Virus record (IMG/VR): IMGVR_UViG_3300035659_000004
Location: 36,139-100,138 of that record
Length of the DNA: 64,000 nucleotides
Strand: one strand, 5' to 3'
Source of the DNA: a virus
The position numbers and the translations under genes were made by a program. The notes beneath the pieces are model-generated. The model did no database searches and was not told the DNA's origin. It saw only the letters and a list, made by a program, of their open reading frames with translations. Shown here piece by piece: positions 8,668 through 47,664 of this stretch. Numbering within the stretch: the first letter of the stretch is position 1; every line of letters begins with the position of its first letter.

Positions 8668-10136
8668 CAGATTCTCCGACGATCATCTCCGGACCGGACT
8701 ATACCCTGACTAAACAGGAAGTGGTCGATTACTATAAAGACCCGGGGGTTCGAGAAAAGCTTCTTCAGCATATCGGGAGCAACCCTGTTCTGACTGTGAT
8801 GCAGCGCACCCCCGGGGAGCCCATCTATCGACGCTACGACGCGAAGAAGCAGCCTCTTCTTCTGAATCCCCAGTCGTTAGACGACCTTACGAGGCAACGT
8901 ACCGTGGAGTTCCACTCTACCCTCGGCGAGGGTACACGGGAAATGTGGGTAGATTTGGACCCTGGCTCGGCGGTCTCTCCCGGCCGGCTCAAGCAGACGG
9001 TGAAGCACGTTGAAGACGTGTTGCGAAAACTCCCTCAGGTCACGAATACGAATATCGTTTTTTCAGGAGGTCGAGGCTACCACGTGCGCGCCGAGCTCGA
9101 GAAGGAGCTCAAGACAGACGCCGCCCGAAAGCTTCTTCAAAAGACGTTGCGCCCGCTGCAGACGTCGAGCCCCGACCTTGTGGATGCTCCTCCTGGAGGA
9201 ACTCAGATTCGCTTGGATACCTCGACGTTCCATGCCAAAGGGTCTGTGCGGGCGCCCTACTCTTTGAACGCGACGACGGGACTGGTAGCGTTGCCTGTGG
9301 CGCGTGAAAAGTTGGACATATTCGAGCCCAAGACTGATGCGTCCATCAAGAGTGTCTTGTCCCAAAAAGACATCGGGGAGTTTGCTCCAGGGATTCCTCG
9401 AGAGCGAACGACTCAGCTCCTGCCGACTGCCAAGGGCAAGGCCTGGACGCTTGCGATACAGAAGCACGTAGCTGAAAAGGCTGGACCGCATTGGGACTTG
9501 CGCCTCGTTGACCCCGAGACAGGACAGGCCCATTCCTGGGCGGTCCCTAAGGCTTCTTTTCCGGACTCCAAGCCACGCCTTGCTTTGCAGATGCCAACGC
9601 ATAGCGCGGACTACGCCCTTTCTTTTGGTGCGAAAGGTCCGCAAACTATTCGTGAAGGGTACGGTAAGGGCACGGTGGAGATGGCGCATAAGGAGCCTAT
9701 CCAAGTTTTGGAAATCAATCCAAATAAGGTTGTTTTTCAGCGCGGCTCCGGGGACACTCTGGCGATGCGTCGAACGAACGAAAACAAGTGGTTGCTCCGA
9801 AAGGCAACGAACATGACTGAGAAGAATGCTTTTTACGTTGCTGGATACCGCGCGGCGCTTGCCAAGCTTGGGGCAGCGGCAGTTAAACCTGTGGGAATGC
9901 GTGGAAAAGAGATGTCCTATGGAGAGGGAAACCGTCCCCTGGAAAGTGGAGATTCCCATCTTCCCGCGGGACAGGTTGCGATGATGTTCCAGCAGTTGCC
10001 CCGAGCTCAACGACGAGGTGGCAGTGTATCGTTGGAGAACTCGTCAGCCGTCGGAGATAACCATGCGGATTGGGGTCCAGCAATGGACGTCTCGAGTTTT
10101 GATGGAGCTTCTCCGTATATGGCAGGACGGAACTGA
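8664..10136 (+). CDS. LigD-like AEP primase-polymerase fused to LigD 3'-phosphoesterase domain, with extra C-terminal tail; no ligase domain
   Basis: AEP motifs VEFH, VDLDPG, SGGRGYHV, RAPYSL; PE motifs QKH..HWDLRL, SWAVPK, RLAL..H..Y, GYGKGTV. Confidence 0.85.
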   Translation: MTDSPTIISGPDYTLTKQEVVDYYKDPGVREKLLQHIGSNPVLTVMQRTPGEPIYRRYDAKKQPLLLNPQSLDDLTRQRTVEFHSTLGEGTREMWVDLDPGSAVSPGRLKQTVKHVEDVLRKLPQVTNTNIVFSGGRGYHVRAELEKELKTDAARKLLQKTLRPLQTSSPDLVDAPPGGTQIRLDTSTFHAKGSVRAPYSLNATTGLVALPVAREKLDIFEPKTDASIKSVLSQKDIGEFAPGIPRERTTQLLPTAKGKAWTLAIQKHVAEKAGPHWDLRLVDPETGQAHSWAVPKASFPDSKPRLALQMPTHSADYALSFGAKGPQTIREGYGKGTVEMAHKEPIQVLEINPNKVVFQRGSGDTLAMRRTNENKWLLRKATNMTEKNAFYVAGYRAALAKLGAAAVKPVGMRGKEMSYGEGNRPLESGDSHLPAGQVAMMFQQLPRAQRRGGSVSLENSSAVGDNHADWGPAMDVSSFDGASPYMAGRN

Positions 10137-10139
10137 TCC

Positions 10140-11942
10140 ATGGCAGATAGGACTGACACATTCGGAAGATTGCTTGTAAATGACTTGTTGCCAGACGAGC
10201 ACAAGGTCACGGGACCTATATCGAAGAAATCTTTTTATAAGATGCTCGATACGATGTCGCGTGAGACTCCGGATGCGTATGTCCGCATAGTGCCCGAGTT
10301 AAAACGTCTCGGAGATTCACTTGCTACGACGGAGGGGCTCTCGGTTGGATTGGACGATATCACTCCCAACTATAAAGATAGGAATGAAACACTTGCTCCT
10401 TTTATTACGCGTTTCGATGCGGCTAAAACGGATAAGGCCCGGAGTCAAATAGCAGAAGAAGCGCATGGTAAGATGCAAGATGTGGCGATGCGCCATAAGG
10501 GAACGATGACGATGCAGGTACAGAGTGGGGCACGCGGTAACCCTACTCAGTACACCTCGATTGTGGCATCTCCAACTTCAGCACGAGACGGAAAAGGGAA
10601 TACGGAACCCTGGCTTATCCGACGGTCCCATAGCGAAGGGCTCTCTTCGGCGGATAACTGGGTCGCGGGAAATGAAGCCATTCTTAATACTATCAGTACA
10701 TACACAGCGGTATCTGAGCCGGGTGAATTGGCGAAGATTCTCGTGAGTAACATGAGCGACATCATAGTAACAGAGGATGATTGTGGAACTACTAATGGTG
10801 TGTTTATGACTGCTTTGTCTCCTTCTGTATTGGACCGTTATCTTGCGAAAGAAGTAGGTGGTTTTAAACATAACACGCTTATTACGTCACTCAATCAGTC
10901 CAAATTAGCAAAGATTTCTTCTACTATTCTCGTCCGATCTCCGATGACGTGTGAGGCAGGGGATGGTGTCTGCCAAAAGTGTCAGGGCCTAAATGAAAAG
11001 GGAAGCACGCATGATATCGGAACGAATGTTGGTGTACGCGCGGCCCAGGCAATGGCGGAACCTCTTACGCAATTCGCTCTCGGGGCCAAGCATGGGGCGC
11101 GAACAATTAAAGATGATCGTATCAAGGTGAAGGGGGTCCAAGGGTTTCGACAGATCATTGAATCCCCCCAGCAGTTTGTAAACAAGGCGACGTTGGCGCA
11201 GCTGAATGGAACTGTTGAGCGCATCACTCCGGCTCCACAAGGCGGCCATTACGTCGTGATTGGTGGACAACAACACTACGTAACTCCTAATCTCGCAGTC
11301 ACGGTAAAAGTTGGAACAGTCGTTCAGGCTGGAGACGCTGTAAGTCAAGGAATTCCCAAACCCGACGAAGTCGTACGACTGAAAGGTCTGGGAATAGGGC
11401 GTCAATATATTGTTGATACCTTGGCAGGTCTTTACAAGGACCAGGGTCGAGAATTAGATCAGCGGCATTTCGAGCTGCTCGCTAAGGGAGAGCTCAACTA
11501 CGTGCGCGTTCTCAAAGACCCAAGCCGTAATTTCGTTCCGGGGGACGTAGTTAGTTACAACGTCTTGAGGAGGGAACTGAAGAAGGGTACCAAGGTCATG
11601 CCCGTCGACGACGCCAACGGGGAGACTTTAGGTAAAGCTTATTTTCACTTTTATACAGGAACTCGTGTTACTCCCCAGATTCAGGCCTACCTGAAACAAC
11701 AGGGAGTAAAGGAAGTCATCATCGCTCCGCGTGCGCCTGAAGTAGAATTCATCATGAAAGCTGCGACCCGAGCCCCTCTTCTAAACCCCGATTGGATGGC
11801 TCGATTGTCGCATCGCAATTTGAAAAATACAATCATGCAAGCCACGCACTTTGGAGAATCTTCAGACATCCACGGAAGCCACCCTGTTCCTGCGTATATT
11901 ACGGGAGTAGAATTTGGGCAGGGTACCAAAGGAAAGTACTGA
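10140..11942 (+). CDS. Phage RNA polymerase beta' C-terminal half
   Basis: TFGR, GLSVGLDDI, SGARG, EDDCGT, VRSPMTC..GVCQKCQG, GVRAAQAMAEPLTQ..KH (trigger loop), RHFEL. Confidence 0.9.
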   Translation: MADRTDTFGRLLVNDLLPDEHKVTGPISKKSFYKMLDTMSRETPDAYVRIVPELKRLGDSLATTEGLSVGLDDITPNYKDRNETLAPFITRFDAAKTDKARSQIAEEAHGKMQDVAMRHKGTMTMQVQSGARGNPTQYTSIVASPTSARDGKGNTEPWLIRRSHSEGLSSADNWVAGNEAILNTISTYTAVSEPGELAKILVSNMSDIIVTEDDCGTTNGVFMTALSPSVLDRYLAKEVGGFKHNTLITSLNQSKLAKISSTILVRSPMTCEAGDGVCQKCQGLNEKGSTHDIGTNVGVRAAQAMAEPLTQFALGAKHGARTIKDDRIKVKGVQGFRQIIESPQQFVNKATLAQLNGTVERITPAPQGGHYVVIGGQQHYVTPNLAVTVKVGTVVQAGDAVSQGIPKPDEVVRLKGLGIGRQYIVDTLAGLYKDQGRELDQRHFELLAKGELNYVRVLKDPSRNFVPGDVVSYNVLRRELKKGTKVMPVDDANGETLGKAYFHFYTGTRVTPQIQAYLKQQGVKEVIIAPRAPEVEFIMKAATRAPLLNPDWMARLSHRNLKNTIMQATHFGESSDIHGSHPVPAYITGVEFGQGTKGKY

Positions 11943-11945: not shown

Positions 11946-12434
11946 ATGTTTCAGCAGGGATATAGCGAAGCATTAATGCATCTTGGATTTGAAAAAAATG
12001 CAGCCGGGTGGTGGGCTGCGAAAGCGGTACCTAAGTTAAAAGAGATAGGACAATCCGCTCTGACAAATTTTATAGGACAACCTAAACAGTTTGGGCGCGA
12101 ATTGCGATCAGGTACCGCTTTCGGGTCAGGCGGTTTGATACGGGAAGGTTTTAAAGCTCCTGGAATTATTCAAAAAGGTCTTATGTATGGGTTTCCCGCA
12201 GTTTCTGCTATACAAACTATTCGAAGCAACGACCCTGATAAGGGGGGTGCATTAGGTGGACTCATTGGTGGAACACTCGCAAGCTCCGCGGCGTTTGGGC
12301 CACTTGGAATGCTCGGAGCGATGCCTGCTGGATATCTAGGAGAGGTAGCAGGTAAGCGTTTAGTGCATGGAGCAAAAAATATTTTAGGTATTGGGAATCA
12401 GACTGCTCCAAGATATACTTCTTTGCAGCAGTAA
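11946..12434 (+). CDS. Putative internal virion protein, Gly-zipper, GYxxAL leader
   Basis: MFQQGYSEALMHLGFEKNA; GxxxG-rich hydrophobic segments. Confidence 0.55.
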   Translation: MFQQGYSEALMHLGFEKNAAGWWAAKAVPKLKEIGQSALTNFIGQPKQFGRELRSGTAFGSGGLIREGFKAPGIIQKGLMYGFPAVSAIQTIRSNDPDKGGALGGLIGGTLASSAAFGPLGMLGAMPAGYLGEVAGKRLVHGAKNILGIGNQTAPRYTSLQQ

Positions 12435-12484
12435 GGAAACAAGCCGCGGCACAATTACCCGGCTAAGAACGTAAGGAAGGTCAA

Positions 12485-12976
12485 ATGAACGCAGAACTCG
12501 TGAAGCAAGCGTATGCCTACGGTGCCGCAGTTGCGCTACAGGAACTTGGTTTCAACCCACAGCAAGCTCAGAATGGGGGAGTGAAGTTGGCGGAAGCCAA
12601 GCTCGCCGAGGGGGAAGAAGAAGGTGGAATGCATCCAGCTTTGGCCGCTCTCCTTGGCGGTGGCGCGGGTGCTCTCGGCGGTGCGGCTTTGGGTGCTGGC
12701 AGTGCGTTCATTCCTGGTTTACGCGGCGGAAGAGGTTTGAATAAACTGTTGGGGCGTCCAATGTCCGCGGCACAAGGCGGCGGTATTATGGCTGGAAAGG
12801 TCACACCCGACGCTCTGTTCAAAAACAAATTCGTGCGCAAGCATTTGATGAACCAAGGTGAAGCGGCGGCTGACTTCCTGCCAAAACTGCAGGATGCATA
12901 TCTTCGTGGAATGGGTGGCGCAGGCGTAGGCGCTCTCGGTGGAGGCCTTGCTGGCGGCCTAATGGCGGGTGAGTGA
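12485..12976 (+). CDS. Putative internal virion protein, Gly-zipper
   Basis: SD upstream; KQAYAYGAAVALQELG; GGGAGALGGAALG. Confidence 0.55.
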   Translation: MNAELVKQAYAYGAAVALQELGFNPQQAQNGGVKLAEAKLAEGEEEGGMHPALAALLGGGAGALGGAALGAGSAFIPGLRGGRGLNKLLGRPMSAAQGGGIMAGKVTPDALFKNKFVRKHLMNQGEAAADFLPKLQDAYLRGMGGAGVGALGGGLAGGLMAGE

Positions 12977-12996
12977 TTTAACAAGGAGTAACTAAA

Positions 12997-13860
12997 ATGG
13001 GTCTGTTAAAGCAAGCACACGTCCGTGGCATCAACCACGCCCTCATTGCGAATGGTATCTTGGAATTCCCCAATGCCAAAATCGCTGAAGACGTTGCCGA
13101 TGAGGTTGCGGACAACTATCCCGAGGAAGAAATCCCCGAAGAGACTCCTGAAGATGGACTCTCTGAGGAGCAAGCCTCGGACATCATCAACCAGCTCGCC
13201 GAAGTCGCCGCGGCTATTACCGAGAAGACCGGTGGAGCTCGTGACCGCGGCGTGAACAAGATTGCGGCTGAAGTCTCTCTTCAGGATGCAGCCTTTGCGC
13301 ATGCCCAGTTCTTGGTGAAGCGAGCCATGGAAGAGGGCACCACCAACCCCGGTGAAGGCGCGGTCGTTCCCGAGCTCACGGGTGCTGAGGCTCAGGTCGA
13401 TGCGGTGAACAATCCGTCATCGGCAGTGGTCGTTCCGCAGGGTTCGTCTGCTATCGACACGACCCCTGGCATCGTTGGTCACGCTGAGCCCGCAGCTCAG
13501 CAGCCCGGCGCGAGCGCATCGCCAGCTCCGGATTCCATGGCCGACGTCAAGGCTGCATCCGAAATCATCCGCATCTTGAAGAAGCTGTCGGAAGATGGAA
13601 CACTGCCTTCTGAAGGCGGTCGGATGGACCTGAATACGAATTCCGCGATTTCGACTCCGGTCGTCGCGCAGGGCACAACCAATGCCCCGACCCCGACGGA
13701 GCCCATCCCACAAAAGCCGCATCCCGCAACCGCCGAAGCCGGTCTCAATACGGCTGGTAGCGCTCCCGCGGATGTCTCCAAGGTGGCGGCGTTTTTGCAG
13801 ACCCCCGAAGGCGCGGCATTTTACCGCAAATTCCAAACTGCAAACATCCTAAATCGCTAA
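12997..13860 (+). CDS. Acidic, K-x-A-rich putative head/core protein
   Basis: AGGAG SD; KIA, KRA, KAA, KVA motifs separating low-complexity blocks. Confidence 0.55.
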   Translation: MGLLKQAHVRGINHALIANGILEFPNAKIAEDVADEVADNYPEEEIPEETPEDGLSEEQASDIINQLAEVAAAITEKTGGARDRGVNKIAAEVSLQDAAFAHAQFLVKRAMEEGTTNPGEGAVVPELTGAEAQVDAVNNPSSAVVVPQGSSAIDTTPGIVGHAEPAAQQPGASASPAPDSMADVKAASEIIRILKKLSEDGTLPSEGGRMDLNTNSAISTPVVAQGTTNAPTPTEPIPQKPHPATAEAGLNTAGSAPADVSKVAAFLQTPEGAAFYRKFQTANILNR

Positions 13861-13944
13861 GTTACCACGGCTTCGCTTTCCTCTGTCCTAATTACGTCGT
13901 ACAATTAAACGTTAACGTCTCGTCGACAAGGGAGTATTGCACCT

Positions 13945-16461
13945 ATGCCTACAATGTCCATGTCTCCGGAAGTTCAAGCGTATGGCCAAATGCCGTCGAA
14001 CGAACAAGCCGCGGAGATGTTCAAACAAAGATTTTCGGAGATGGCCTATAACGTAATGATGGCGAAGTTCCCGGAGCTCGCCGCACAGGTGGTGACGTTT
14101 AAGCTCATCGAAACGGACGCCGAGAGTGGCAAGGGCGTAGGCGCTTTTGTTTTGCTCATGGAAGACAAGACCATCTACATCCCTGTTGTGATGGTGGATA
14201 GTCAACTCAAACCTTTCGACATGTTCTATTTCAAGGACCTCAATATCTTCCTGCCTCTTTCCAATGAGTGGCTGGATGAGGTATCGAAGTCCGCGCTGTC
14301 TAACTTAGGCGAGCCGGCCAAGTTGCCACAAGGTGTTGCGCGGGATATGAGTATTCGCGATCTCGTAATCCCGCCCGTTATGCCCGAAGGACGTATAGGT
14401 GTCGCTTCCGATCTGTCTGAAATGTTCAAGGAGGCATCTTATAATCCCAAGCCGCGGTTTCTAGAGTTCGTAAAAAATGCGTCACATGTTGTGCTCGACG
14501 GATTAAAGTTAGCCTTTGAACGCAATCCAAGTTTTGGGCAAAAGGTGGCACGGTATTACGGGAAGAAAGCTTTGATAGAAGCTTTCCAAACGGGATACGC
14601 ACAGACGGTCAAGGTTGCGGAAGAGAAACGCACGTATATGGTTGGCGTTTATACGTCGAGTACTTTTTACGATGCAGTTCCTATGCTGAAAAAGAACTGT
14701 GGTACAAAAATTGCTTCAGACCTTTTTAAGACGATTGCGACCGACGGGTTCGCCGCGGTGGATACGCGCCCGGTCGTAAAGAATACCATCGTCAAGGTGG
14801 AATCCCCCATCGAGCTCACCCCGGCTACCTCCACGGGTTTTTACCATCTGTACTTCCCGGACAAAGCCAAGCAGCTCTGTCTGGTTTCCAAAGCGGTGGT
14901 AGGCGATGACTACGTGGTCATCTACGCCGACGGGAGCAAGGCTTGGACAGTTTACGGTGCAGATGCGAAGACACTGTTGGGAGAACCCGAACATGACGAT
15001 AAAGTTGTAAAGGCTACGGCGGTTTACAAAGCTCTCGAAGGACGCACCCAGAATAAGCCCACCACAGGGAAGTACAACGTTCCGTTGTACGTTTCGAGCA
15101 AGGGCAAACTTCAAATCGGTGCGCCGAAATTCATCACGAAGATGACCGAAGATGGTGGGACGACTTCATTTGATGGAGGCGTTATCGATTCGGATGACAC
15201 GCGCGGTCGCATCATGTCTTCTTCGAGCGGCTCTGGCAATAGTCCGTGCACCTGCGGTTGCCCAACTCTCTACTATCCGAAGAGCACATCCTGGTTTTCG
15301 GTACCGGACCCTTGGGAATCAAAGAAAGAGCCTATCACGGACCCAAGCATCATCACGCGTTGGCTCGACCAATACATCGCGGACAAGACCGATGCTGCTC
15401 CTATCAACGTGAAGAGCGCTGGCCTGGCTCAGTGGTGGGTCGAAGGCGTTCCCACGGCGTCTTATTTGGATGTGGCTATCACGAAGGTGGCCAAGGCTTA
15501 TGACCTTTCGCTAACAGATTCTGCGAACGTCCTGCACGATGCCGCGAAAAATGGTACGTGTCGTCTTCGCTTGGTGAAAAGAGCTCAGGGCGAACAGATG
15601 ATGCAGCAAGAGGCTCCTCCTCAGCAGAGCATGGACCCGGCGATGATGCAACAGCAGCAGGGCATGGACCCGGCGATGATGCAACAGGGCATGGACCCGG
15701 CGATGATGCAGCAGCAGGGCATGGACCCGTCGATGATGGGAATGGGGATGCCTATGCAGCCTCCTCAATTATCCCCGACGGATTTGGCGATTGCTGAAAC
15801 GGTACAAGGTCTGCAGCAAGAGAATCAGGTGCGGATGCAGCAGATTCAAGACCAAATGGCGCAGCAGCAACAGGCTATGCAGCAGGAGACAGAGTCTAAC
15901 GAGAAACTCATCGCTATCCTGACGCAAATTCAACAACGTGCAAATGCTATTGGACAGGCAACAGGTGGGATGGTTCCGCCACAGGCGATGGCTTCTCCGC
16001 TAGCTGCTGGGCAGATGCTCGCACCGACACCCCCGCCGCAACCCGAACCTCCTCCGATGCCCGTGATGCAGGAAGAGGGGCCAGCCTCCGCGGAGATGGT
16101 AGCTTCTCAAATTCATCCCGAGCTCGCGGAGCAGGCTGCTGATTTTCAGGACGCGGGGATGTTCGATACCTCGGTGCTGGCAGTCATGGCTGCGGCGCCC
16201 CTTCTTCGGGACATCGTCAGCACGTACATCCCGAACCTCGAGAAAGCTCTCGACAACATCGGGCGTATTCAGTTGACATTGTGGATGCGGGAGGCTGAAA
16301 CGAAAGCGGCTATCGGGAATGATGCGTACGTGCTGCTCGAGGACAAGCTGCGCAACGTGTTCAAAAATCTAGGAGAAATCGTGCTGCAAGTGAATCGCAA
16401 CGCCCTTGATACCGAAGCGGGCGCGATGCAATCACAGAGGATGTTGGGCGACCAACAATAA
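13945..16461 (+). CDS. Large putative virion protein with Q/M/P-rich repeats
   Basis: 838 aa; several K-x-A motifs; MDPAMMQQ repeats. Confidence 0.6.
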   Translation: MPTMSMSPEVQAYGQMPSNEQAAEMFKQRFSEMAYNVMMAKFPELAAQVVTFKLIETDAESGKGVGAFVLLMEDKTIYIPVVMVDSQLKPFDMFYFKDLNIFLPLSNEWLDEVSKSALSNLGEPAKLPQGVARDMSIRDLVIPPVMPEGRIGVASDLSEMFKEASYNPKPRFLEFVKNASHVVLDGLKLAFERNPSFGQKVARYYGKKALIEAFQTGYAQTVKVAEEKRTYMVGVYTSSTFYDAVPMLKKNCGTKIASDLFKTIATDGFAAVDTRPVVKNTIVKVESPIELTPATSTGFYHLYFPDKAKQLCLVSKAVVGDDYVVIYADGSKAWTVYGADAKTLLGEPEHDDKVVKATAVYKALEGRTQNKPTTGKYNVPLYVSSKGKLQIGAPKFITKMTEDGGTTSFDGGVIDSDDTRGRIMSSSSGSGNSPCTCGCPTLYYPKSTSWFSVPDPWESKKEPITDPSIITRWLDQYIADKTDAAPINVKSAGLAQWWVEGVPTASYLDVAITKVAKAYDLSLTDSANVLHDAAKNGTCRLRLVKRAQGEQMMQQEAPPQQSMDPAMMQQQQGMDPAMMQQGMDPAMMQQQGMDPSMMGMGMPMQPPQLSPTDLAIAETVQGLQQENQVRMQQIQDQMAQQQQAMQQETESNEKLIAILTQIQQRANAIGQATGGMVPPQAMASPLAAGQMLAPTPPPQPEPPPMPVMQEEGPASAEMVASQIHPELAEQAADFQDAGMFDTSVLAVMAAAPLLRDIVSTYIPNLEKALDNIGRIQLTLWMREAETKAAIGNDAYVLLEDKLRNVFKNLGEIVLQVNRNALDTEAGAMQSQRMLGDQQ
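15631..15740 (+). repeat. Coding tandem repeat (G)MDPAMMQQ(QQ), four copies
   Basis: ATGGACCCGGCGATGATGCA repeated with variable Gln-codon tracts. Confidence 0.85.
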
Positions 16462-16466
16462 CTAAA

Positions 16467-17171
16467 ATGTTGGCTCCAATACAGCCCTATTGGCGATGGT
16501 CAAACCTTACGTACGGCATCCAACATAGGACACCTCCTGCGGACCCTTGGCTGGAGCAGCTTTACGATTTGTACCTAGGGAATATAGAAGGGACTGAGTT
16601 TCAACAGGTCGTAGTAAGTCATGTTTTTTCGGAGTTCAAGCGCGACGTTATCATGGCCTATTTTTTCGCAAGGTGTTCCGCTAAGGATATCGAAGAGAGT
16701 CTCGAGCTAGCGCCCGAGATAATCGAAGGTATCGCGCGTCTTTTTTTCGACCGAACAAAGATTCGTACGAAACTCGACCACATTGAATACGCTCGAGAGT
16801 ACATGGAGAGGTTCGCTTGTCCTGAAGGCAAGAATCTCATTTACCTGGGGATGACAGGTGGACCTCTGACGCTGAAGAACAAATTTTGTCTGGGTTATGA
16901 GATGCCCGCAATAGACCAGGACTTCGTTAATCATCGTATGTATCTCACGGCAGTTTCATTTGGGCTAATGGCCAGAGGTAACGCCTTGACTTCGCGTGAA
17001 GGAAAAGAAGCATTGCACTGGTTCCAGCAAGCTTCGGATATGTCGACTACGTATAGGAAGCTTCAACAAGGCGAGGATGATTCTCAAGATGCCATCGTGG
17101 CAATTGAGCAACGTAAGTTTTTGCATAAACCCGAAGCGGTTGGAATAAACCGTAACGACATTCTTCACTGA
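16467..17171 (+). CDS. Hypothetical protein
   Basis: 234 aa ORF within the operon. Confidence 0.6.
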   Translation: MLAPIQPYWRWSNLTYGIQHRTPPADPWLEQLYDLYLGNIEGTEFQQVVVSHVFSEFKRDVIMAYFFARCSAKDIEESLELAPEIIEGIARLFFDRTKIRTKLDHIEYAREYMERFACPEGKNLIYLGMTGGPLTLKNKFCLGYEMPAIDQDFVNHRMYLTAVSFGLMARGNALTSREGKEALHWFQQASDMSTTYRKLQQGEDDSQDAIVAIEQRKFLHKPEAVGINRNDILH

Positions 17172-17186
17172 CAAGGAGTCGGCCTA

Positions 17187-18044: not shown

Positions 18045-18729
18045 AAAAGTATTTGTAGACCCGGGTCCAGCGCTGAAACGTTTTATTGAAAAGGTTCAGC
18101 GTAACCCTGTTAAGTCTACATTAGCTGTTGGCACTACAGCTGCTGCCGCAAACTCGTTTGGCCCCAAGGCCATGGAACAGGAGAGTGAGTTCATGAAGAA
18201 TCGTCTTGGGTCACCCGACGCCAAGTTTGTGTATGCGTCTGAAAAGGTCGCGGCAATACTAGAAGACCTGTACGTGAAAGAAGCGGCAGGAACTCCCACG
18301 GCGTCTAATCCTTCTGCGTGGAGTAGCGCTTGGACTAAAGGTGTTGAAAGCATAGGGTCAGGAGTTGGACAAGGAGTGGGCGCCGCAGGTGTCCTGGTTT
18401 TGACGGACATCCTTCGAAAAGCAGGACGTGGATTATCTCAAAAACTTCTATATGATTCGAAACGAAAAGAAATGCTTCGAAAGATTTTGTCTCTGGACCC
18501 CATTGTCAGTGCCTTCGAAGCTCAAAATCCAGGGTTGATGCTTAAGGTTTATGCCTCGATGGTTTCAGTTGCTCCTACCTTGAGTCTCGACCAGAATGCC
18601 GTGACTTCTTTCCTGCGTGAAGCGGCTCAAACGCATGGCGCTCTGAATTACATGACGATCAAACAACTGGCTGAAACTGAAAAAGCAATAACAAGTGCTA
18701 AGGGGGACGAGCGTCCTCTAGGATTCTGA
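18022..18729 (+). CDS. Putative virion protein
   Basis: 235 aa; KVA, KEA; Gly-rich hydrophobic segment. Confidence 0.55.
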   Translation: MGWKSVAEKVFVDPGPALKRFIEKVQRNPVKSTLAVGTTAAAANSFGPKAMEQESEFMKNRLGSPDAKFVYASEKVAAILEDLYVKEAAGTPTASNPSAWSSAWTKGVESIGSGVGQGVGAAGVLVLTDILRKAGRGLSQKLLYDSKRKEMLRKILSLDPIVSAFEAQNPGLMLKVYASMVSVAPTLSLDQNAVTSFLREAAQTHGALNYMTIKQLAETEKAITSAKGDERPLGF

Positions 18730-18738
18730 GGTGTATAC

Positions 18739-18957: not shown

Positions 18958-18964
18958 AACTTCG

Positions 18965-21046
18965 ATGATGAAGAAGATTGTCCATCTCGACTCGCACTTC
19001 CCGACCGGCGAGCAAACGGTTCAGCCGGTGATGCTGTGGTCGAGAGGAAAAAGCTTCATCGAGCCCATCACGAAGTATGCCAGCGTTGGAGCTGAGTATT
19101 TCAAGACCATCGAACCCATTCCAGGGCACAGCATTGTTTACGTTCTCGCCGTCAGTGCATGGGAGCGCTACGGCGAGAATCGTAATGGAGATGGTTTTCC
19201 GGACCAGCCGTATAAACCTCTCTCTAGTCCTCCATGGATTTCAGAAGATGAAATTCTAAGCAAGCACTACAAATCTTTTGAGCAGTTCGGTTTCAATTAC
19301 CGTCATCATCAGAACACGGACCCTGAAAAGTCTGTCGGACGTGTGATGCGTGCGTTTTGGAATCCGACCATGTATCGCGTTGAACTCCTGATTGATGTCG
19401 ATAATGCGAAGGCTCCGGATTTAGCAAACCGTATAGCCGCGGGAGAATACCCCCCTGTTTCCATGGGTACTAAGGTCCCCTGGGACGTGTGCCTAATCTG
19501 CGGAAATAGAGCTCCTACCCGCGCCCAATACTGCGACCACCTCCGTTTTCAGATGCGTGAAGTCGTCAACGGATTGAAAGTCGCAGCCTTGAATCCGAGT
19601 TGTAAGTTCTTCGACATCTCCTGGGTGGTACGTCCCGCAGACCCCAACGCTTACATGTTGAAGAAGGTCGCGGAAGAGGCCTATGAAATCAAGCTCTCGG
19701 GAGCAGCTGCAGGTGAATACTTGGACGAGATGCAAGAGCGTAAGATGGCCGCACACAAACTCGCGGTCATCGACAAGGTCGTACAGGGAATTCCAGTAGA
19801 TGCTAAAACCGAGGGTGTTGACCCCATGCATCTTCAGAATATCCAGACGATGCAACCCACCGCCCAGAGCATGAGCGCAGGTCTTCCCGAGCTCCCGGAT
19901 GATTTGCTCCGGCGCCTGGCTTCTTCTTTTTCGCTGCCGGAAATCTTCACCTCGACGTTGGCGATGGGCATGCCTCTTTGCACCCGCGAGGTCGTGAAGA
20001 TTACTATCTACCGGCAGATGCCCCAGGTTCCGAACATGGATGGGATAGCGGATGCGGCTGTTGCAGCTCGACAGCCCCTGCTCGGTCTTTTTCAAGAGCA
20101 CCCTCAAATGCTGGATGCTTTTGAAAAGGATTTGGACATCGACCAATGTCATCTCAATCCAAAAGTTGCGGAAATGATTGGCACTGGAATGGAAAAACGT
20201 TCGGGTATTTACGAGTATTTGAAACGGAAATACATCCCGGGAAAATACCGTGACGAAACTTCTCAATTGACGCCTTTCACGCTCACGGACCCTGTTTCAG
20301 GGCAGCGCTATGGGACCAATCGTTGGGCAGCTATCCAAGCTCACGACGAAATTGCGAAAAAGAATTTACGCAAAGTTATTGGTGGAGGCGCGGCGTTGGG
20401 TGGGGCTTACGGTCTCATTTCTGCAGGGCTTCGTAGCAAAGGTTTATCTAAACTGAATCCCCTCGTAGCGGGTACCTTAGGTGCTGTTGGTCTTTCTAAC
20501 TTGCCTTCCATGGGTGCTCACTACATGACCGATCAAGGTGTCCCTATCCCAGTACTCACAGAGCTCACGAAGATGAGCGTGGACTCTTCTAGTTTTTCAC
20601 GCTCCCTCGCATTGCCTCTTTTTGGTACACTTGGAACAATGGCTCTTCTTGGAATGGATCGTAGACACCGTTTAGCCCAGGGCTATATTCCGGGTGACCC
20701 TAGTGAAGGAGTCTTACGGCGAGGGGTTGATACGCTCGGCTCTGCTGCAGCTAATTACCCCCTGCTTTTTGCAGGACTAGGAACCATGGGTCTTCGTGCT
20801 GCAGGGAATACGCAAACAGCTAAATACCTCGGAGAAAATATTGTCGGACCTTTAGCGCAAAAGGGAAAGAGTTGGGCTAATAAAACGGATGAAGCTCTTC
20901 GAGGTTGGGCTAAGAAGACAGACCAGGGTGTAAAAGATTGGGCGAGTACGAAGACCTCGTCAGACACGGTAGGTCTTCCTGATTTGGATATGGACAAAAT
21001 TGCTGAAAGTCTCGGCAAAATTCTGTTAGCAAACACGGTCTTGTAG
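18965..21046 (+). CDS. Prohead (capsid maturation) protease with Zn-ribbon and long C-terminal extension
   Basis: NRNGDGF, HHQN..GRV, VSMG, CLICGN..CDH, DISWVVRPADPNA (HK97/assemblin-type pattern); upstream of the capsid gene. Confidence 0.75.
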   Translation: MMKKIVHLDSHFPTGEQTVQPVMLWSRGKSFIEPITKYASVGAEYFKTIEPIPGHSIVYVLAVSAWERYGENRNGDGFPDQPYKPLSSPPWISEDEILSKHYKSFEQFGFNYRHHQNTDPEKSVGRVMRAFWNPTMYRVELLIDVDNAKAPDLANRIAAGEYPPVSMGTKVPWDVCLICGNRAPTRAQYCDHLRFQMREVVNGLKVAALNPSCKFFDISWVVRPADPNAYMLKKVAEEAYEIKLSGAAAGEYLDEMQERKMAAHKLAVIDKVVQGIPVDAKTEGVDPMHLQNIQTMQPTAQSMSAGLPELPDDLLRRLASSFSLPEIFTSTLAMGMPLCTREVVKITIYRQMPQVPNMDGIADAAVAARQPLLGLFQEHPQMLDAFEKDLDIDQCHLNPKVAEMIGTGMEKRSGIYEYLKRKYIPGKYRDETSQLTPFTLTDPVSGQRYGTNRWAAIQAHDEIAKKNLRKVIGGGAALGGAYGLISAGLRSKGLSKLNPLVAGTLGAVGLSNLPSMGAHYMTDQGVPIPVLTELTKMSVDSSSFSRSLALPLFGTLGTMALLGMDRRHRLAQGYIPGDPSEGVLRRGVDTLGSAAANYPLLFAGLGTMGLRAAGNTQTAKYLGENIVGPLAQKGKSWANKTDEALRGWAKKTDQGVKDWASTKTSSDTVGLPDLDMDKIAESLGKILLANTVL

Positions 21047-21099
21047 GATGAAGACGAGCACCATATGATTGGTGCGTAAAAGGAAAGAGGTCAAGCACC

Positions 21100-21654
21100 A
21101 TGGAATTCGGTAAGATGCTCGCTAACTTTAACGCTCCCGCTGCTTCTCAAACCAAGACAGCCAGCGCGGATAACTCCAAACAGCAGCTTGCTAGCGCCGT
21201 GGAAGCCACAAAGGTTGCCTCGGCGACGCAATCGACGGACGCGGTGGAGGCTCTCATGAAGACTGCTGCCACTTTGGCGGAAAATGAAAAGACGGCAGAG
21301 CTGGTGCATGCGCATATGAGCGGCCGGGCTTTCGCGCAGGGTGCTTTGGAAGTGTTTGCGGCAGCGGATTCTGCAGCTCAAAAAGTAGCGTCTGCGTATC
21401 CGCAACCGCAACTGCAATTACAGGATGACACAATGGTAAAAGCCGCGGCTGAGCAAGGCTACCAGGATACGATGGTTAAAGCTGCCGCCGAGCAGGGTTA
21501 TCGCGACACGATGACCAAGGCTGCCGCGGAGTACAACCAGGGCTACGAAGCGGCCGTCACTGACGCCGTCAACGCCGCCGCCAACGAGTTCTACAAGGGT
21601 GCACAAGAGGCCATGATTCTCATTCAGGCCGCTCGCAACCAGAAGAACGGTTGA
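21100..21654 (+). CDS. Putative scaffolding protein
   Basis: Ala-rich helical; many K-x-A; DTMVKAAAEQGY repeated about three times. Confidence 0.55.
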   Translation: MEFGKMLANFNAPAASQTKTASADNSKQQLASAVEATKVASATQSTDAVEALMKTAATLAENEKTAELVHAHMSGRAFAQGALEVFAAADSAAQKVASAYPQPQLQLQDDTMVKAAAEQGYQDTMVKAAAEQGYRDTMTKAAAEYNQGYEAAVTDAVNAAANEFYKGAQEAMILIQAARNQKNG

Positions 21655-21661
21655 GTGAACC

Positions 21662-22925: not shown

Positions 22926-23846
22926 ATGGCATACAACGTTGAAACCTCTACTCATTCCGCGCAGTTCCTGAACAAGTCCTTCATCTCCAAGATTGAAGGT
23001 GGCCAGACCAAGGAAGCGGTCGAGGCCAGCTCGCTGTTCATCCGCGAGCGTCTTCGTCAGGCTGCTGCTGTTCGTGAAGTGATCATCCCCCAAGGTGTGA
23101 CCGAAGAGGACATCGACCGGGACGAGAGCACCGATCAGCCGAAGATCATCATCGACAAGGAGCCGGATTCGTCGGCTACCTTCGTGCAATTCCAGGGAAC
23201 TGGTCGACGCACGTGGTTCAAGGGTCCTCGTTACTCGGTTCGCTTCGGCAAGGTCGAGTCGCAGAGATTCACCAAATCGAAGGCTGAGCTCATGACCTAC
23301 CGTTCTGACATTCGCAAGATTTTGTCAGACAATTCGGTCATGGACATGGCGGACGAAGAGGATCGTAAATTCTACGAGCTCGTCGCTGCCATCATTGCTG
23401 CGAACCCGTCGGTACAGCGTACCTCGGGTCCGTTCCAGAGCGGCACCTTCAAGACTGCCTGCCAGGCGATGCTGACCGGAACTCGCAAACGTCCCATCGG
23501 CAAGCTACTCTTGAGCAAAGAGCGCTACATGGACGCACTCGACCTGCCGGCGACCTCTGTCGGTGACGAGATCGCGAAGCGCCATTTCGATGAGGGTATC
23601 GAAGCTTCTCAGAAGCTTTGGGGACTCCCGGTCGTGACCCACGTCAAGTCGGATATCTATCCGACCGACAAGGGTTGGATCTTCTCCCCAACCTCGCCGA
23701 ACAATTTCCTCGGCAACTTTTTCACTCTGCAAGATGCAACTCTGTTCATCAAGCAGGAAGCTGACATCATCTCCTTCTGGACGTACGAATACATCGGAAT
23801 CGGTTTGGCCAATTCTTTGTCCATGCAGGAAATCGTTTTTAGTTGA
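22926..23846 (+). CDS. Major capsid protein (HK97 fold, inferred)
   Basis: 306 aa; GGGAGG SD; C-ending codon bias; follows protease, scaffold and decoration genes. Confidence 0.7.
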   Translation: MAYNVETSTHSAQFLNKSFISKIEGGQTKEAVEASSLFIRERLRQAAAVREVIIPQGVTEEDIDRDESTDQPKIIIDKEPDSSATFVQFQGTGRRTWFKGPRYSVRFGKVESQRFTKSKAELMTYRSDIRKILSDNSVMDMADEEDRKFYELVAAIIAANPSVQRTSGPFQSGTFKTACQAMLTGTRKRPIGKLLLSKERYMDALDLPATSVGDEIAKRHFDEGIEASQKLWGLPVVTHVKSDIYPTDKGWIFSPTSPNNFLGNFFTLQDATLFIKQEADIISFWTYEYIGIGLANSLSMQEIVFS

Positions 23847-28738: not shown

Positions 28739-31453
28739 ATGCCTCTATCTAGACCGAACACTGTCATTTATCAAGAGTACGCGGACCTTTCCGTTGTTCC
28801 GGCCACCCCATTCCTGAACAGCCTCATTGTGGGTCCCTGCTACCAGCTGTTGGACTACCTCGATGACATGGATGACTGTTATGCCGGATTGTACGGGACG
28901 CTACGGATGGCGTATCCCCGCACGACTCCGACGGCCGCCGTAGTCATCGCGACTCCTCCTGAGCTCGAAACTGGGGCAATCCTCGAAGATGACAGCGTGT
29001 CGATTTTCTTCGATGAGGCACAGGTGGTGATAACAGAGGTAACGGGCTCAGGCAGTCCGACCAACGGCATATTTTACGCAAGTGATAATCTGTTTACGAC
29101 CACGAATAACACAGGCTTTCACATGAATGATAAATATGTGCAAGCTGGAGACACGCTCATCGCGCAAGCCAATGGCGCTGCAGACTGCATCAAAACTGTA
29201 AAAGAGTTGGCTTTTACTTTTTACGATAAGGGGGCCGGAAATCCACTGAGCTTCACAACAGCAGGAGTGGATATTGGAGATATCATCACAGTGTCTGCGG
29301 ATGCTGCGACTCCTTCTCGCGACGGCATTTACACCGTAAAAAAGAAGTACATCGTCAATGGGTCCGTGGTTGCTGATGCCATCGAGATCGAAGATGCGAC
29401 GAGTCTTTCCACGGGATCAGAAGGATTGGCGCATGTCCGTATTACCTCAGCAGGTGGTACTAAGAAATTTGATAGCACGACTGACGGTACTACGGGGAAA
29501 GTAAATTTGGGTGATTGGTGCAACCTACGAGTCACAACCGATTTCGATACGGCGAATGCGGCGAACTGCCGTTGGCGCGTCGAGCGTCAGCTGAGCGACG
29601 TGGAGCTTGCATCGTCAGATTTCTCGGTAAATACGACGACCAAAGCTGTTACATTGATTGCCGGAGTTACCGCGACTGTGAGCACCGTCATCGGCGCGAA
29701 GCCTGTCTCCTACGCGAAGATGTACATGCAGTACAAGGCCTTGCGCCTCGACCTGCAAAACATCGCGGAGGTTTCATCCCCGTCTGAAGCTATCGCGCTT
29801 TTGGGAAAATATGATGCGCGTAACCCGCTCTGCGTGGGCGTGCACGTCGCATTGGCGAATACCACGACTCCCATCAAGTGCTACGGTATCGCGGCGGATA
29901 CCCTGGCAGGATATGGCGATTTCATCGAGCGCACCAGCCATCTATCGGATATCTACGCTGTCACACCACTGACATATGACACCAGCATCATCGGTTCTCT
30001 GAAAGATGCGTGGGAAAACTACGCTGACCCAGACTACGTGCTGCAGCGCGGCATCAAGCAAAAGTTCCGGACGACTCTCGGCGCCGTGGACCTCGTCACG
30101 CAGAGTGACGTTATCGTAGCGAAGGGTGGTGCGTCGACGCTGGTGAAAGCTGGCACGACCCCGACGGGGAATAAGACGCTCACGCTTTCGGGTCTCGTAG
30201 GTCAAACTGCCGATTTTAGCGCAGCCAGTGTCCTTCCGGGTGACATTGTGCATGCTACCATCGGCGGTGTCGTCTTGGGACCTTTCACAGTTGCACATGT
30301 TAATACTGCTTTGATTCTGGAAACAGAAGAAGCTCTCGCAGGTCTGGGTGCTGCTAGTAATGCACTCGACACTTTGGACATCACAGACCCGACTGGAGTT
30401 ATTCATCGGTTCACAGCTCTCACGTACTCCGTTGGTGTAAAAGAATTCGTCCTCGGAGCAAGTGTTCTTGACGCCCTTTATCTGACGCTGAGTTCTTCAA
30501 ACTCGACGTTCATCACCAGTGGCGTCGTTCCGGGTGACCTCCTTCAGATGCCGAGCGATCCCGAGACAACGACCTGGACGACCTACGACACGTGGGAAGT
30601 AGCCTCGGTGGACAGCGAGACACGCATCACGATTGCCAACAACGGCAACAATTCGTCCGACCTCGAAAACGAGTTCCCACACTTGGTCAAGCGCACAGCC
30701 GCAACAGACCGCTCCGTAACACAGGGCACGCTTTACTTCCGCGTCAAGCGTGACATGACCAAGACCGAGCAGGTCAACTACATGCTCGCGGTCGCGCACA
30801 GCTTGGATAGCAAGCGCGCGCTGCTCTACTACCCAAACAGCGTGGACGTGACCGACCTCGTGGACGGCAGCAAGACGCGTACTGGTACCGCCGCCGAGCT
30901 CGCCGATCCCCAGCCGGGTTACTACCTGGCCTGCATGGTCGCGGGACAGACCGCGAGCCAGCCGTCGCAGCAGGGCTTCACGAACATGGGTGGAAACGGT
31001 ATCTCCCGTGTTTATAACTCGAACGACTACTTCAGCGAAGAGCAGCTGACCAGTTTGTCGAACGGCGGCGTGTACGTCTTCGTGCAGGATGCTCCGACTG
31101 CGCTACCTTATACAATTCATGCGGTGACGACGGACGTTCTTTCGCTCGAGACTGGTGAGTACATGCACGTGAAGAATTTGGATTACCTTTCGATGTCCTT
31201 CCTCGAGACCTTGCGCCCCTTCAACGGGAAGTGGAACATCACGCCCGACGCTCTCCAATTCATCACGCAGGCTTTGTACGCGGTTATCACCACGCACAAG
31301 ACAGCCTACAGAGCTCGGATTGGTGCGCCACTTATCAACGCTACGGTACGCACGGTTTACCAGAACACCGATGTTGAAGACCGGATTGAAGCGTATATTG
31401 ACGTTAACCTGCCCACGGTGCTCAACACCATCGGCCTGCACTTGGTGTCATAA
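28739..31453 (+). CDS. Tail sheath protein with large insertions
   Basis: 904 aa; N-term RPNTVIYQE; C-term PSQQGFTN..LSNGGVYVF..TT..GKWNIT..IEAYIDVNLPTVLNTIGLHL. Confidence 0.8.
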   Translation: MPLSRPNTVIYQEYADLSVVPATPFLNSLIVGPCYQLLDYLDDMDDCYAGLYGTLRMAYPRTTPTAAVVIATPPELETGAILEDDSVSIFFDEAQVVITEVTGSGSPTNGIFYASDNLFTTTNNTGFHMNDKYVQAGDTLIAQANGAADCIKTVKELAFTFYDKGAGNPLSFTTAGVDIGDIITVSADAATPSRDGIYTVKKKYIVNGSVVADAIEIEDATSLSTGSEGLAHVRITSAGGTKKFDSTTDGTTGKVNLGDWCNLRVTTDFDTANAANCRWRVERQLSDVELASSDFSVNTTTKAVTLIAGVTATVSTVIGAKPVSYAKMYMQYKALRLDLQNIAEVSSPSEAIALLGKYDARNPLCVGVHVALANTTTPIKCYGIAADTLAGYGDFIERTSHLSDIYAVTPLTYDTSIIGSLKDAWENYADPDYVLQRGIKQKFRTTLGAVDLVTQSDVIVAKGGASTLVKAGTTPTGNKTLTLSGLVGQTADFSAASVLPGDIVHATIGGVVLGPFTVAHVNTALILETEEALAGLGAASNALDTLDITDPTGVIHRFTALTYSVGVKEFVLGASVLDALYLTLSSSNSTFITSGVVPGDLLQMPSDPETTTWTTYDTWEVASVDSETRITIANNGNNSSDLENEFPHLVKRTAATDRSVTQGTLYFRVKRDMTKTEQVNYMLAVAHSLDSKRALLYYPNSVDVTDLVDGSKTRTGTAAELADPQPGYYLACMVAGQTASQPSQQGFTNMGGNGISRVYNSNDYFSEEQLTSLSNGGVYVFVQDAPTALPYTIHAVTTDVLSLETGEYMHVKNLDYLSMSFLETLRPFNGKWNITPDALQFITQALYAVITTHKTAYRARIGAPLINATVRTVYQNTDVEDRIEAYIDVNLPTVLNTIGLHLVS

Positions 31454-31887
31454 TGAAAAGCGTTTTTTACCAAGCAGGTTACGACGAAGCCCTCGTGAAG
31501 ATGGGCGGCTGGGGTTCGGCGATACAAAAAGGTGTCTCGGCTGCTGGCAAATGGATAGGAAATCTTGGAGCCAAGATGGGTCCTGTAGCGCCTGCGGGAG
31601 TAGGTAAGGCTGCTCCAACGGGATGGCTTGCGGGGAAAGCCCAAGGTGCGGCCCAAGGTTTGGGTCAATCCATCAGCAACCTCGCCGCGGCCCCGGGTCA
31701 AACCCTTTGGCAGGGCGCTGGAAACTTCGGAAAGAACATGCTCGGGATGGGAAATGCCGCGACTACAAGCGGTGTCTTAGGCCGCGGCGCCATGGGCGTT
31801 GGCCTGGTGGGTGGCGCTACGGGTGGATTTGGACAAAGATCGCAACCAGGGCCGGGGAAACTACCGGGTCCGGGACAGATGCAATAG
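31453..31887 (+). CDS. Gly-rich putative internal virion protein, GYxxAL leader
   Basis: MKSVFYQAGYDEALVKMG. Confidence 0.55.
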   Translation: MKSVFYQAGYDEALVKMGGWGSAIQKGVSAAGKWIGNLGAKMGPVAPAGVGKAAPTGWLAGKAQGAAQGLGQSISNLAAAPGQTLWQGAGNFGKNMLGMGNAATTSGVLGRGAMGVGLVGGATGGFGQRSQPGPGKLPGPGQMQ

Positions 31888-46237: not shown

Positions 46238-46686
46238 AAAAAGGTATATGGTCTTTGTCTCTTCTCCTTTTCTTGTTTCTTACTAAACCGATACAGGCTG
46301 AAGACTTCCCTGAACGAAAAGTACCAGACGTAAAAACGACGACGTTGCAAGGCAAGGACTATAAATGTTTTGACACAGCCCAATATTCGTCGCTTCTGCT
46401 TATGTCCTCGGATTACCAGGCTCTTCGGCAGGTCTATTATCTGAATGTCCCCAAGCTCTATAATGACTTGGAAGATTTGTACGTCCTCAAACTGTCGCTC
46501 AAGGATGACGAGCTTGCTGTGGTCAAAGGGCATTTGAGTAACGCACAGAAAGAACTCGCAGCTCGGTCTTTAGTCGACGAAAAAGTCGTGAAGAAACTAC
46601 AGTTGTCTGCGACAGGTTGGAAAGTTATCTCTGGAGTGGAAGCTGCGTTGCTCGTGGCCGTAACTGGTTACGCTATCTTCAAGTAA
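46234..46686 (+). CDS. Signal-peptide protein with C-terminal hydrophobic anchor (possible lysis component)
   Basis: MKKGIWSLSLLLFLFLTKPIQA; C-term AALLVAVTGYAIFK. Confidence 0.5.
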   Translation: MKKGIWSLSLLLFLFLTKPIQAEDFPERKVPDVKTTTLQGKDYKCFDTAQYSSLLLMSSDYQALRQVYYLNVPKLYNDLEDLYVLKLSLKDDELAVVKGHLSNAQKELAARSLVDEKVVKKLQLSATGWKVISGVEAALLVAVTGYAIFK

Positions 46687-47224
46687 AAAGTCCCATCGCT
46701 TCTTGCAACCCCGGACGTGCAGCTCTATTCTGGAATAAGCTATTCACGACAGGGGTCTGGGATTGAGCTTGAAGAAGTTGGTCAGCTTGCCGGAATTGTG
46801 CAGCTTGTTGGGGATAAGCTCCTGCGAATTGATTTTGGTGTGCGATATTCACAGGTGTCTTGGGGGCGGCCTGTAAGCGGACTGTCGCTGGGTCATACCC
46901 AGGGAGATTTTTAGCTCGAGCTGCAGGTGCGACAGTTGCTGATGGTGTTTGTTCCGCTAGAGTTCTAAACGGAGTTTGGGGTTCCACCGTTCGAGATTTA
47001 AGGCCTTCCATAAATTCTCTTTGTGTTGGGGTAGGAACTCCTGGGCGCACCGTCGGTCGAAGAGCTGCTCGCATGGCGGTACTCTCAGGTGCCACCATAG
47101 CCGTAGCCGGCGCGCGTGTGAAGAGGCTCTTCGCCGCTCGCGCGGCTGAGTCTAGGATACCTGCTTCTTTTTGAAATCCCAGGTCCCAAAGCGCTTGGGT
47201 ATATCCTAGCTGCTGAAAATTCAT
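46679..47224 (-). CDS. Putative internal virion protein, GYxxAL leader
   Basis: MNFQQLGYTQALWDLGFQKEAG. Confidence 0.6.
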   Translation of the reverse strand: MNFQQLGYTQALWDLGFQKEAGILDSAARAAKSLFTRAPATAMVAPESTAMRAALRPTVRPGVPTPTQREFMEGLKSRTVEPQTPFRTLAEQTPSATVAPAARAKNLPGYDPATVRLQAAPKTPVNIAHQNQFAGAYPQQAAQFRQADQLLQAQSQTPVVNSLFQNRAARPGLQEAMGLFT

Positions 47225-47664
47225 TGGTATCCTGCCTGCATTTGCATCTGTGGGTCGTACTGCTGCATGGGCTGTCCCGGAGGTGGAGCTCCCGAGCCCA
47301 TCACATATCCTAGGCCACCCGCTCCTGCGCCAGTCAGAGCTATACTCTTGAGTGGGTTACTCCGAATACGCGCTAAAAGACCCGGAGATGCTGTTGCTGC
47401 AGGCGCTGCGGCTGCTGCTTCTGTGGCTGCTGCCGCTGCCGGAGCTGCTGCCGCTGCCGGAGCTGCTGCCGCTGCCGGAGCTGCTGCCGCTGCCGGAGCT
47501 GCTGCCGCTGCCGGAGCTGCTGCCGCTGCCGGAGTTTTTGGAGTACGCGTAAAGAATCCTTTCGCTTTCGACGCTAGAGTCTTTGCCCCTGAGATTAATC
47601 CCGCTTCTTTTATCAGACCCATATCGACTAATGCCGCTTGATATCCTGCTTGTTTGAAAGGCAT
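47221..47664 (-). CDS. Putative internal virion protein, GYxxAL leader, PAAAAA repeats
   Basis: GGAGG SD; MPFKQAGYQAALVDMGLIKEAG. Confidence 0.6.
   Translation of the reverse strand: MPFKQAGYQAALVDMGLIKEAGLISGAKTLASKAKGFFTRTPKTPAAAAAPAAAAAPAAAAAPAAAAAPAAAAAPAAAAATEAAAAAPAATASPGLLARIRSNPLKSIALTGAGAGGLGYVMGSGAPPPGQPMQQYDPQMQMQAGYQ
47426..47533. repeat. Perfect 18 bp tandem repeat, six copies
   Basis: GCTGCTGCCGCTGCCGGA x6, encoding PAAAAA on the minus strand. Confidence 0.95.

Follow-up and report, generated by a model that had tools for sequence, protein, structure and literature searches.

Why do several proteins encoded on both strands of one viral genome share a short peptide of the form GYxxALxx[LM]G? 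The question arises in a 64,000-nucleotide stretch of DNA (the window) that corresponds to bases 36139-100138 of the 100,138-bp IMG/VR record IMGVR_UViG_3300035659_000004 (record completeness judged 56%) and that comes from an uncultured phage of a ~175-kb clade, which probably carries its own RNA polymerase in the virion. An initial annotation had proposed that this peptide, here called the tag, is an address resembling the capsid-targeting sequence (CTS) of phage T4, recruiting otherwise unrelated proteins into the prohead. We find a genuine, well-delimited and conserved feature, and we tentatively favor, at slightly less than an even chance, the reading that it is a docking leader which, by analogy with the T4 CTS, would be loaded into the head with its protein and released at a K-x-A protease site.

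All five peptides quoted in the initial annotation were confirmed: gene 11946-12434 opens with MFQQGYSEALMHLGFEKNA, gene 31453-31887 with MKSVFYQAGYDEALVKMG, and the minus-strand genes 47224-46679 and 47664-47221 with MNFQQLGYTQALWDLGFQKEA and MPFKQAGYQAALVDMGLIKEA, respectively, while MTEKNAFYVAGYRAALAKLG starts at 9813, after the LigD_Prim-Pol (aa 60-233) and LigD 3'-phosphoesterase (aa 266-340) domains of the sole enzyme among the tag carriers. Six-frame translation of the entire record yields exactly five matches to the strict pattern GY..A[LM]..[LM]G, compared with a mean of 0.025 (maximum 1) in 200 residue shuffles, and all five lie in real genes, four at the N-terminus and one internally in the LigD-type protein. 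An identical set of five is found in G001, one of two whole near-complete relatives that we compared (G001 and G002, 172,892 and 179,063 bp; G001 is 97%-complete). The starts of the tagged genes are backed by Shine-Dalgarno-like sequences or by stop/start codon overlap, and when a hidden Markov model (HMM) of the tag was run on the 8,498 open reading frames (ORFs) of three genomes, true copies scored 22-40 bits and nothing else exceeded 10 bits. The consensus of 36 copies ([FY]4, G7 in 36/36, Y8 in 24/36, A/T/V11 in 35/36, L12 in 29/36, L/M15 in 35/36 and G16 in 36/36, followed by a hydrophobic residue at 17, K19 in 21/36 and A21 in 20/36) describes a short amphipathic helix of ~20 residues, [FY]-x-x-G-[Y]-x-x-[A/T/V]-L-x-x-[L/M]-G, with a small-xxx-small helix-packing face at G(7)-x-x-x-A/T/V(11), a Gly break and then, mostly, h-x-K-x-A (h, hydrophobic). 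The five DNA copies in the window agree only at peptide-constrained positions, which argues for selection on the peptide and for a tag that is old and not recently copied; recent shuffling by recombination was rejected on the same grounds. Membrane binding by the amphipathic helix seems unlikely (mean net charge 0, with Gln, Asp, Glu and Thr on the polar face), and a profile search of the PDB with the tag returned nothing below E 0.6.

In AlphaFold models, the tag helix is isolated in flexible, low-confidence sequence and packs on neither enzyme nor body. Within the LigD-like protein, the enzyme domains (residues 1-381) are modeled confidently (pLDDT about 90), the tag is a lone helix at 388-401 (pLDDT about 50) and the other tail residues fall below 50; in the family encoded directly after the gene for the C-terminal part of RNA polymerase beta' (beta'C), the tag helix spans residues 2-12, breaks at L-G-F-E and is followed by another helix beginning at K17, with low pLDDT throughout.

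The tag is not peculiar to the window. Twenty-two related viral contigs were collected through beta'C (53-89% identity), and comparison with related genomes bore out a conserved, position-specific module that is N-terminal in nearly all cases, its position being kept in about 20 related uncultured phages. In nearly all relatives the gene directly after beta'C begins with the tag, this family being conserved over its entire length, tag included, and the LigD-like protein carries the tag at ~residue 395-450, where it heads a ~100-aa C-terminal tail. In the family of the 47221-47664 product, P0022, P0028 and P0031 keep both tag and C-terminus. The number of copies per genome is five in G000, five in G001 and four in G015. 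When 1.84 billion representative proteins were searched exhaustively with a profile, 24 matched at E<=1e-3; about 19 of these are genuine, the remainder being TPR-, TAL- or mTERF-like helical repeats; nearly all genuine tags begin within the first 10 residues of phage-like proteins of 69-230 aa, and a few proteins carry two or three tags in tandem (P0014, P0019, P0024). A word-indexed protein search found the same clade only, cultured phages held no homologue of the tagged proteins or of an 868-aa protein of the structural block, and scans of viral and genome collections with P0013, P0019 and P0033 gave no matches. Neither Pfam nor PHROGs has a family for any of the small tagged proteins, and a protein atlas search with them yielded low-score leads only, to Gly-zipper and tape-measure-like models.

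Beyond the strict copies the likeness fades. The looser copies reported at 12485 (YAYGAAVALQELGF) and 12997 (RGINHALIANGI...KIAE) are visible and are conserved in G001, G002 and L007, but they reach at most 2.2 bits with the tag HMM, which is non-significant. The repeats noted in the scaffold candidate, AEQGY[QR]DTM[VT]KAA (aa ~109-156 of the 21100-21654 product), are real as well, but their resemblance is confined to the first half of the tag (8.2 bits, E about 1 with the HMM; hhalign probability 20%, P 1e-3). In L007, an extra 91-aa ORF (9722-9997) between the LigD-like gene and beta'C opens with MVKMKKTANQIADEVIEKVA, a K-x-A leader with a degenerate tag.

The initial annotation had placed a K-x-A site usually next to the tag. 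This holds for N-terminal tags, which have K.A within 10 aa downstream in 30/42 cases and upstream in 4/42, but not directly after the 31453 tag, where the next h-x-K-x-A follows from aa 50; in the LigD type the site lies on the other side, K.A occurring downstream of 0/11 internal tags and just upstream, on the enzyme side, of 8/11. These counts are phylogenetically non-independent, coming mainly from two orthologous families and a few others, and a Fisher P of 3e-4 overstates their independence. Lysine and alanine are the conserved positions, the middle residue being E, N, T, L, F, Q or I. In the proteins encoded at 11946-22913, K-x-A occurs 62 times compared with 24.9+-4.8 expected from composition (about 2.5-fold) and h-x-K-x-A 27 times compared with 6.4+-2.4 (about 4-fold), whereas both are at expectation in the rest of the 100-kb record. 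The scaffold candidate is dense in K-x-A, and many K-x-A sites of the cluster stand without a GY helix. K-x-A is also found close to the N-terminus of the capsid protein (as G-x-T-K-E-A) and of the protease, and is kept there as far as Salmonella phage Arash and Vibrio phage D69, which with Vibrio phages D148 and D181 are the closest cultured phages (beta'C identity 29-31%, capsid 38-40%). The simplest reading of the motif, to judge from its placement, is that K-x-A would be a protease site parting cargo from tag. The candidate for the cleaving enzyme is the head-maturation-protease-like product of 18965..21046, a homologue of Arash gp222, which was detected in Arash virions. Only about its first 240 aa form the protease-like domain, with a Cys/His cluster (CLICGN...CDH); the other ~450 aa consist of Gly-rich hydrophobic helices and further K-x-A sites.

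On the docking-leader reading, the helix would dock a protein onto the core of the prohead during its assembly (the scaffold or a different internal protein), the head-maturation protease (18965-21046) would then cut at K-x-A and N-terminal tags would be clipped from their cargo; in the LigD-like protein the cut would fall on the enzyme side and free the PrimPol/phosphoesterase from its tag-bearing tail. Docking partner, cleavage and packaging are steps that we infer. We favor this reading because the motif is non-random, kept at orthologous positions and N-terminal in database matches, because K-x-A is oriented and head-enriched, because the cluster encodes a head-maturation-protease homologue and the tag is modeled as an isolated helix, and because Arash particles hold RNA polymerase beta, beta' and head-cluster products and there are precedents in T4, SPN3US and P1. 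We also count in its favor that, of the seven genes with a tag or tag-like sequence, five show translational linkage within the portal-to-tail block. By mass spectrometry of purified Arash particles, RNA polymerase beta was the top protein by spectra, beta' was also present and all products of the equivalent beta'C-to-capsid gene cluster were detected, in a preparation whose 116 proteins include replication enzymes and whose specificity is therefore limited (PMC10585845).

The precedents differ in how closely they fit. The T4 CTS is a 10-20-residue N-terminal peptide on IPI, IPII, IPIII, Alt, gp67 and gp68 that is removed by the gp21 prohead protease (PMC5694885). Like it, the tag is a short N-terminal peptide common to dissimilar proteins, with a candidate protease motif directly after it and genes among head genes, and the presumed cargo would likewise be head-carried proteins. 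Its sequence is unrelated, however, the motif is h-x-K-x-A where T4 gp21 has [L/I]-x-E, and in one carrier the tag is internal, lying C-terminal to the enzyme, with the motif on the opposite side. The phage itself is not T4-like, and its capsid protein matches those of Arash and Vibrio D69 only. Among phiKZ-like giant phages, SPN3US gp53 and gp54 provide a head-loading leader precedent in their conserved N-termini (PMC5694885). The resemblance to this group (SPN3US gp53/gp54 and gp47; phiKZ and 201phi2-1 head proteins) extends to a multisubunit RNA polymerase among head genes, conserved N-termini on paralogous or dissimilar head proteins, a prohead protease with its own motif and an ejection protein with a transmembrane-like segment after the propeptide, but their propeptides are mostly >100 aa with the motif S/A/G-x-E, compared with leaders of about 20 aa here, and the RNA polymerase layout here is a beta-beta'N fusion with a separate beta'C. 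In phage P1, the N-terminal ~30 residues of DarB direct this large enzyme into the capsid, according to the part of the account considered here, which places the signal on a single protein and describes no adjacent cleavage motif (PMC9024508); the tag, unlike that signal, spans families.

Several points weigh against the docking-leader reading, besides the non-independence of the orientation counts and the limited specificity of the Arash preparation. RNA polymerase beta-beta'N and beta'C, the largest presumed cargo, have no tag and almost no h-x-K-x-A. Tags of the 31453 and LigD types lack a downstream K-x-A, and two of the tagged genes stand apart in a divergent operon of their own, 7.7 kb past the structural block and beside a run of small genes. 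The carriers are mostly low-complexity proteins with Gly/Ala-rich bodies plus one enzyme, which weakens the initial description of them as otherwise unrelated. The likeness of the scaffold repeats to the tag is weak, so that mimicry or binding of the scaffold by the tag is a mere lead. Arash and D69 have neither the tag nor the tagged families, and their proteomics is therefore not directly transferable; the tag-bearing clade is known from its sequences alone and has no cultured tagged member. Finally, whole-record searches found only two strong tags in most relatives, both flanking beta'C, an arrangement that suits a polymerase-docking role equally. The proposed T4-like address is partly supported: what stands is a conserved N-terminal helix module with K-x-A adjacent, in or beside the head block; an untagged polymerase and the two tags of most relatives weaken the proposal.

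A polymerase-docking role belongs to a broader alternative, which we consider unlikely, in which the tag would be a docking or oligomerization helix for one complex, binding the virion RNA polymerase or other tags (in an ejection or membrane complex), and no capsid address. Both clade-wide tags directly flank beta'C (LigD-like tail upstream, Gly-zipper protein downstream), the untagged polymerase could itself be the partner, the tandem tags fit self-association and the small-xxx-small face is of a kind that could serve packing. Yet a K-x-A on the cargo side suggests separation of tag and body, which would defeat a lasting tether, and carriers also lie far from the polymerase genes (31453; 46679-47664).

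The second alternative starts from the composition of the carriers. With the tags removed, composition-adjusted BLASTP with the low-complexity filter off, a comparison whose power is limited by low complexity, detected no body-to-body similarity (E >0.09) for any pair except the 47224 and 47664 products, which have ~42 N-terminal residues in common; the initial claim of no other obvious similarity thus holds by BLASTP save for this pair. Glycine accounts for 10-25% and alanine for 12-35% of the residues in four of the five strict carriers, as well as in the 12485 product. Because Gly/Ala/Pro/Gln-rich bodies lose homology fast and several carriers are neighbors (11946, 12485 and 12997; 47224 and 47664), the small proteins may be old paralogues with drifted bodies. 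Their N-terminus would then be a propeptide removed by the protease, for instance keeping membrane-active Gly-zipper proteins inert, rather than an address, and the LigD-like tail would have arisen by fusion. The full-length conservation of the after-beta'C family, not of the tag alone, is in line with this, as is an in-frame Met before the internal tag of LigD-like proteins, the expected trace of a fusion or nested start. We nevertheless assign this explanation a low probability: the bodies have no detectable similarity even in the unfiltered comparison, they are of different types (Gly-zipper, disordered and Pro/Gln-rich, or a LigD tail that has conserved motifs of its own) and the helical half of the tag shows more conservation than a cleavage site alone would need, given that many other K-x-A sites of the cluster do without it.

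The clear modular case is the LigD-like protein, as modeled a well-folded enzyme followed by a flexible tail with the tag. The in-frame Met lies 2-9 aa upstream of the internal tag in 10/11 LigD-like orthologues (window 9813; L002-L022, L054), often as MTP[FY], exactly as at the start of free-standing tagged genes, and may be either the relic of an ancient gene fusion or a start codon nested within the gene. A Shine-Dalgarno-like sequence before this Met ranges from strong (L015, L020, L021) to absent, purine-richness being confounded here by K-E-A codons. Public gene calls P0013, P0016 and P0033 start at the internal Met; P0013, a 107-aa gene on 40-46 kb contigs, was rejected as a free-standing LigD tail since the call begins within an uninterrupted ORF of 489 aa.

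Lambda C/Nu3 and protease-scaffold fusions load proteins through nested or fused scaffold domains. The ~100-aa LigD-like tail, at whose head stand the tag and the conserved in-frame Met, is comparable, and a free tail and the enzyme-tail fusion could co-assemble. This invites an elaboration of the docking-leader reading, possible but on balance doubtful, into a two-way anchor-and-release module: the helix would serve as an N-terminal clip-off leader or as an anchor at the start of a tail, with K-x-A on the cargo side and possibly mimicry of the scaffold GY repeats, and a free tag-plus-tail made from the internal LigD start would co-assemble with the enzyme-tail fusion and load the PrimPol/3'-phosphoesterase into the capsid beside the injected RNA polymerase.

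It is very improbable that the tag instead serves as a leader recognized by a modifying enzyme, as RiPP leaders are, for although helical leaders with conserved aromatics are typical recognition elements and the 868-aa protein of the virion block (35147-37753) has a weak ATP-grasp match (R2K_3, E 0.0014, below the Pfam cut-off), that protein has no homologue in the complete, tag-bearing G002, a search that was not systematic turned up no further candidate maturase and the association of tag and K-x-A points to a protease.

Should the docking-leader reading be correct, the tag would plausibly be a previously undescribed variant of a known signal type, in a barely studied phage clade. Head-loading leaders would then not be peculiar to T4 and its giant relatives but would represent a general solution, reached in an unrelated clade by way of another peptide and another protease code; a compact ~20-residue tag with a simple release motif would be useful for packaging foreign proteins and would give a rule to predict capsid-travelling proteins of uncultured phages. 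The LigD-like case would be the first hint, in this clade, of a DNA-end-processing enzyme delivered with the genome.

The tags and the genes around them are listed in Table 1. The structural block is a single plus-strand run (861-39012).

Table 1. Positions of tags, tag-like sequences and neighboring genes in the window.
Feature	Coordinates	Strand	Remarks
Internal tag (M-TEKNA-FYVAGYRAALAKLG-AAAVK), C-terminal tail of LigD-like protein (gene 8664-10136)	9813..9887	+	K-N-A upstream, 9822-9830
N-terminal tag MFQQGYSEALMHLGFEKNAAG, 162-aa Gly-zipper protein (gene 11946-12434)	11946..12008	+	K-N-A directly after
N-terminal tag MKSVFYQAGYDEALVKMGG, 144-aa Gly-rich protein (gene 31453-31887)	31453..31521	+	No K-x-A directly after
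N-terminal tag MNFQQLGYTQALWDLGFQKEAG, 181-aa Pro/Gln/Ala-rich protein (gene 46679-47224)	47159..47224	-	Conserved in G001
N-terminal tag MPFKQAGYQAALVDMGLIKEAG, 147-aa protein with Ala/Pro linker and C-terminal Gly-zipper (gene 47221-47664)	47599..47664	-	
Looser tag KQAYAYGAAVALQELGF, 163-aa Gly-rich protein	12485..12976	+	Conserved in G001, G002, L007; under HMM threshold
Loosest tag-like N-terminus LKQAHVRGINHALIANGI..PNAKIAE, 287-aa protein	12997..13860	+	
Portal protein	861..2600	+	Opens structural block
RNA polymerase beta and beta' N-terminal part, fused	3283..8667	+	Within structural block; no tag
LigD-type PrimPol plus 3'-phosphoesterase protein, 490 aa	8664..10136	+	
RNA polymerase beta' C-terminal part (beta'C)	10140..11942	+	No tag; clade-conserved tagged genes on both sides
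Three small genes	starts 11946, 12485, 12997	+	
838-aa head-cluster protein	13945..16461	+	Three further genes after it
Head-maturation-protease-like protein, 693 aa, long C-terminal extension	18965..21046	+	phrog_18299, E 9.7e-9, aa 72-197
Scaffold candidate, Ala-rich	21100..21654	+	Many K-x-A sites; two to three GY repeats (about 21424-21567)
Major capsid protein	22926..23846	+	G-x-T-K-E-A at N-terminus, kept in Arash and Vibrio phage D69
Weakly sheath-like 904-aa protein, one of the tail genes	28739..31453	+	

Gene 31453 lies between the sheath-like gene and the next tail gene, the counterparts of which are directly adjacent in Arash and D69, so that 31453 is an insertion. In front of the operon of minus-strand tagged genes, the divergent intergenic region 47665-47740 (76 nt) is nearly identical between G000 and G001, whereas the flanking coding DNA has diverged, and we take this region for a likely regulatory element; the leader region of the operon, 70 nt long, is strikingly well kept between the two. 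Between 39 and 49 kb a sigma-70 scan showed no excess, no enriched 9-mer emerged from 219 upstream regions in three genomes, visual inspection of upstream regions revealed no promoter classes and a search for ATTGTAAAA gave 17 occurrences compared with 13.9 expected, again defining no promoter class.

Elsewhere in the block, the 13945-16461 product is homologous to the Arash virion protein gp218 and has Gln/Met/Pro-rich repeats (QQGMDPAMM) in its C-terminal half. A gene for an SNF2-type helicase (window 3-800, minus strand) diverges from the portal gene; the Arash helicase gp217 is encoded directly after beta'C and is abundant in particles. The RNA polymerase beta-beta'N gene of L007 (2820-8237) contains an apparent intein-like or homing-endonuclease-like insert that the window gene lacks. 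The 868-aa protein has Gly-zipper segments and shares with the 417-aa product of 37759-39012 a common module, M[KR]K[TS]AEQLSW.VLFK[FY]A.REG, which in the 868-aa protein is internal, directly after PMKKTA, and resembles a polyprotein junction.

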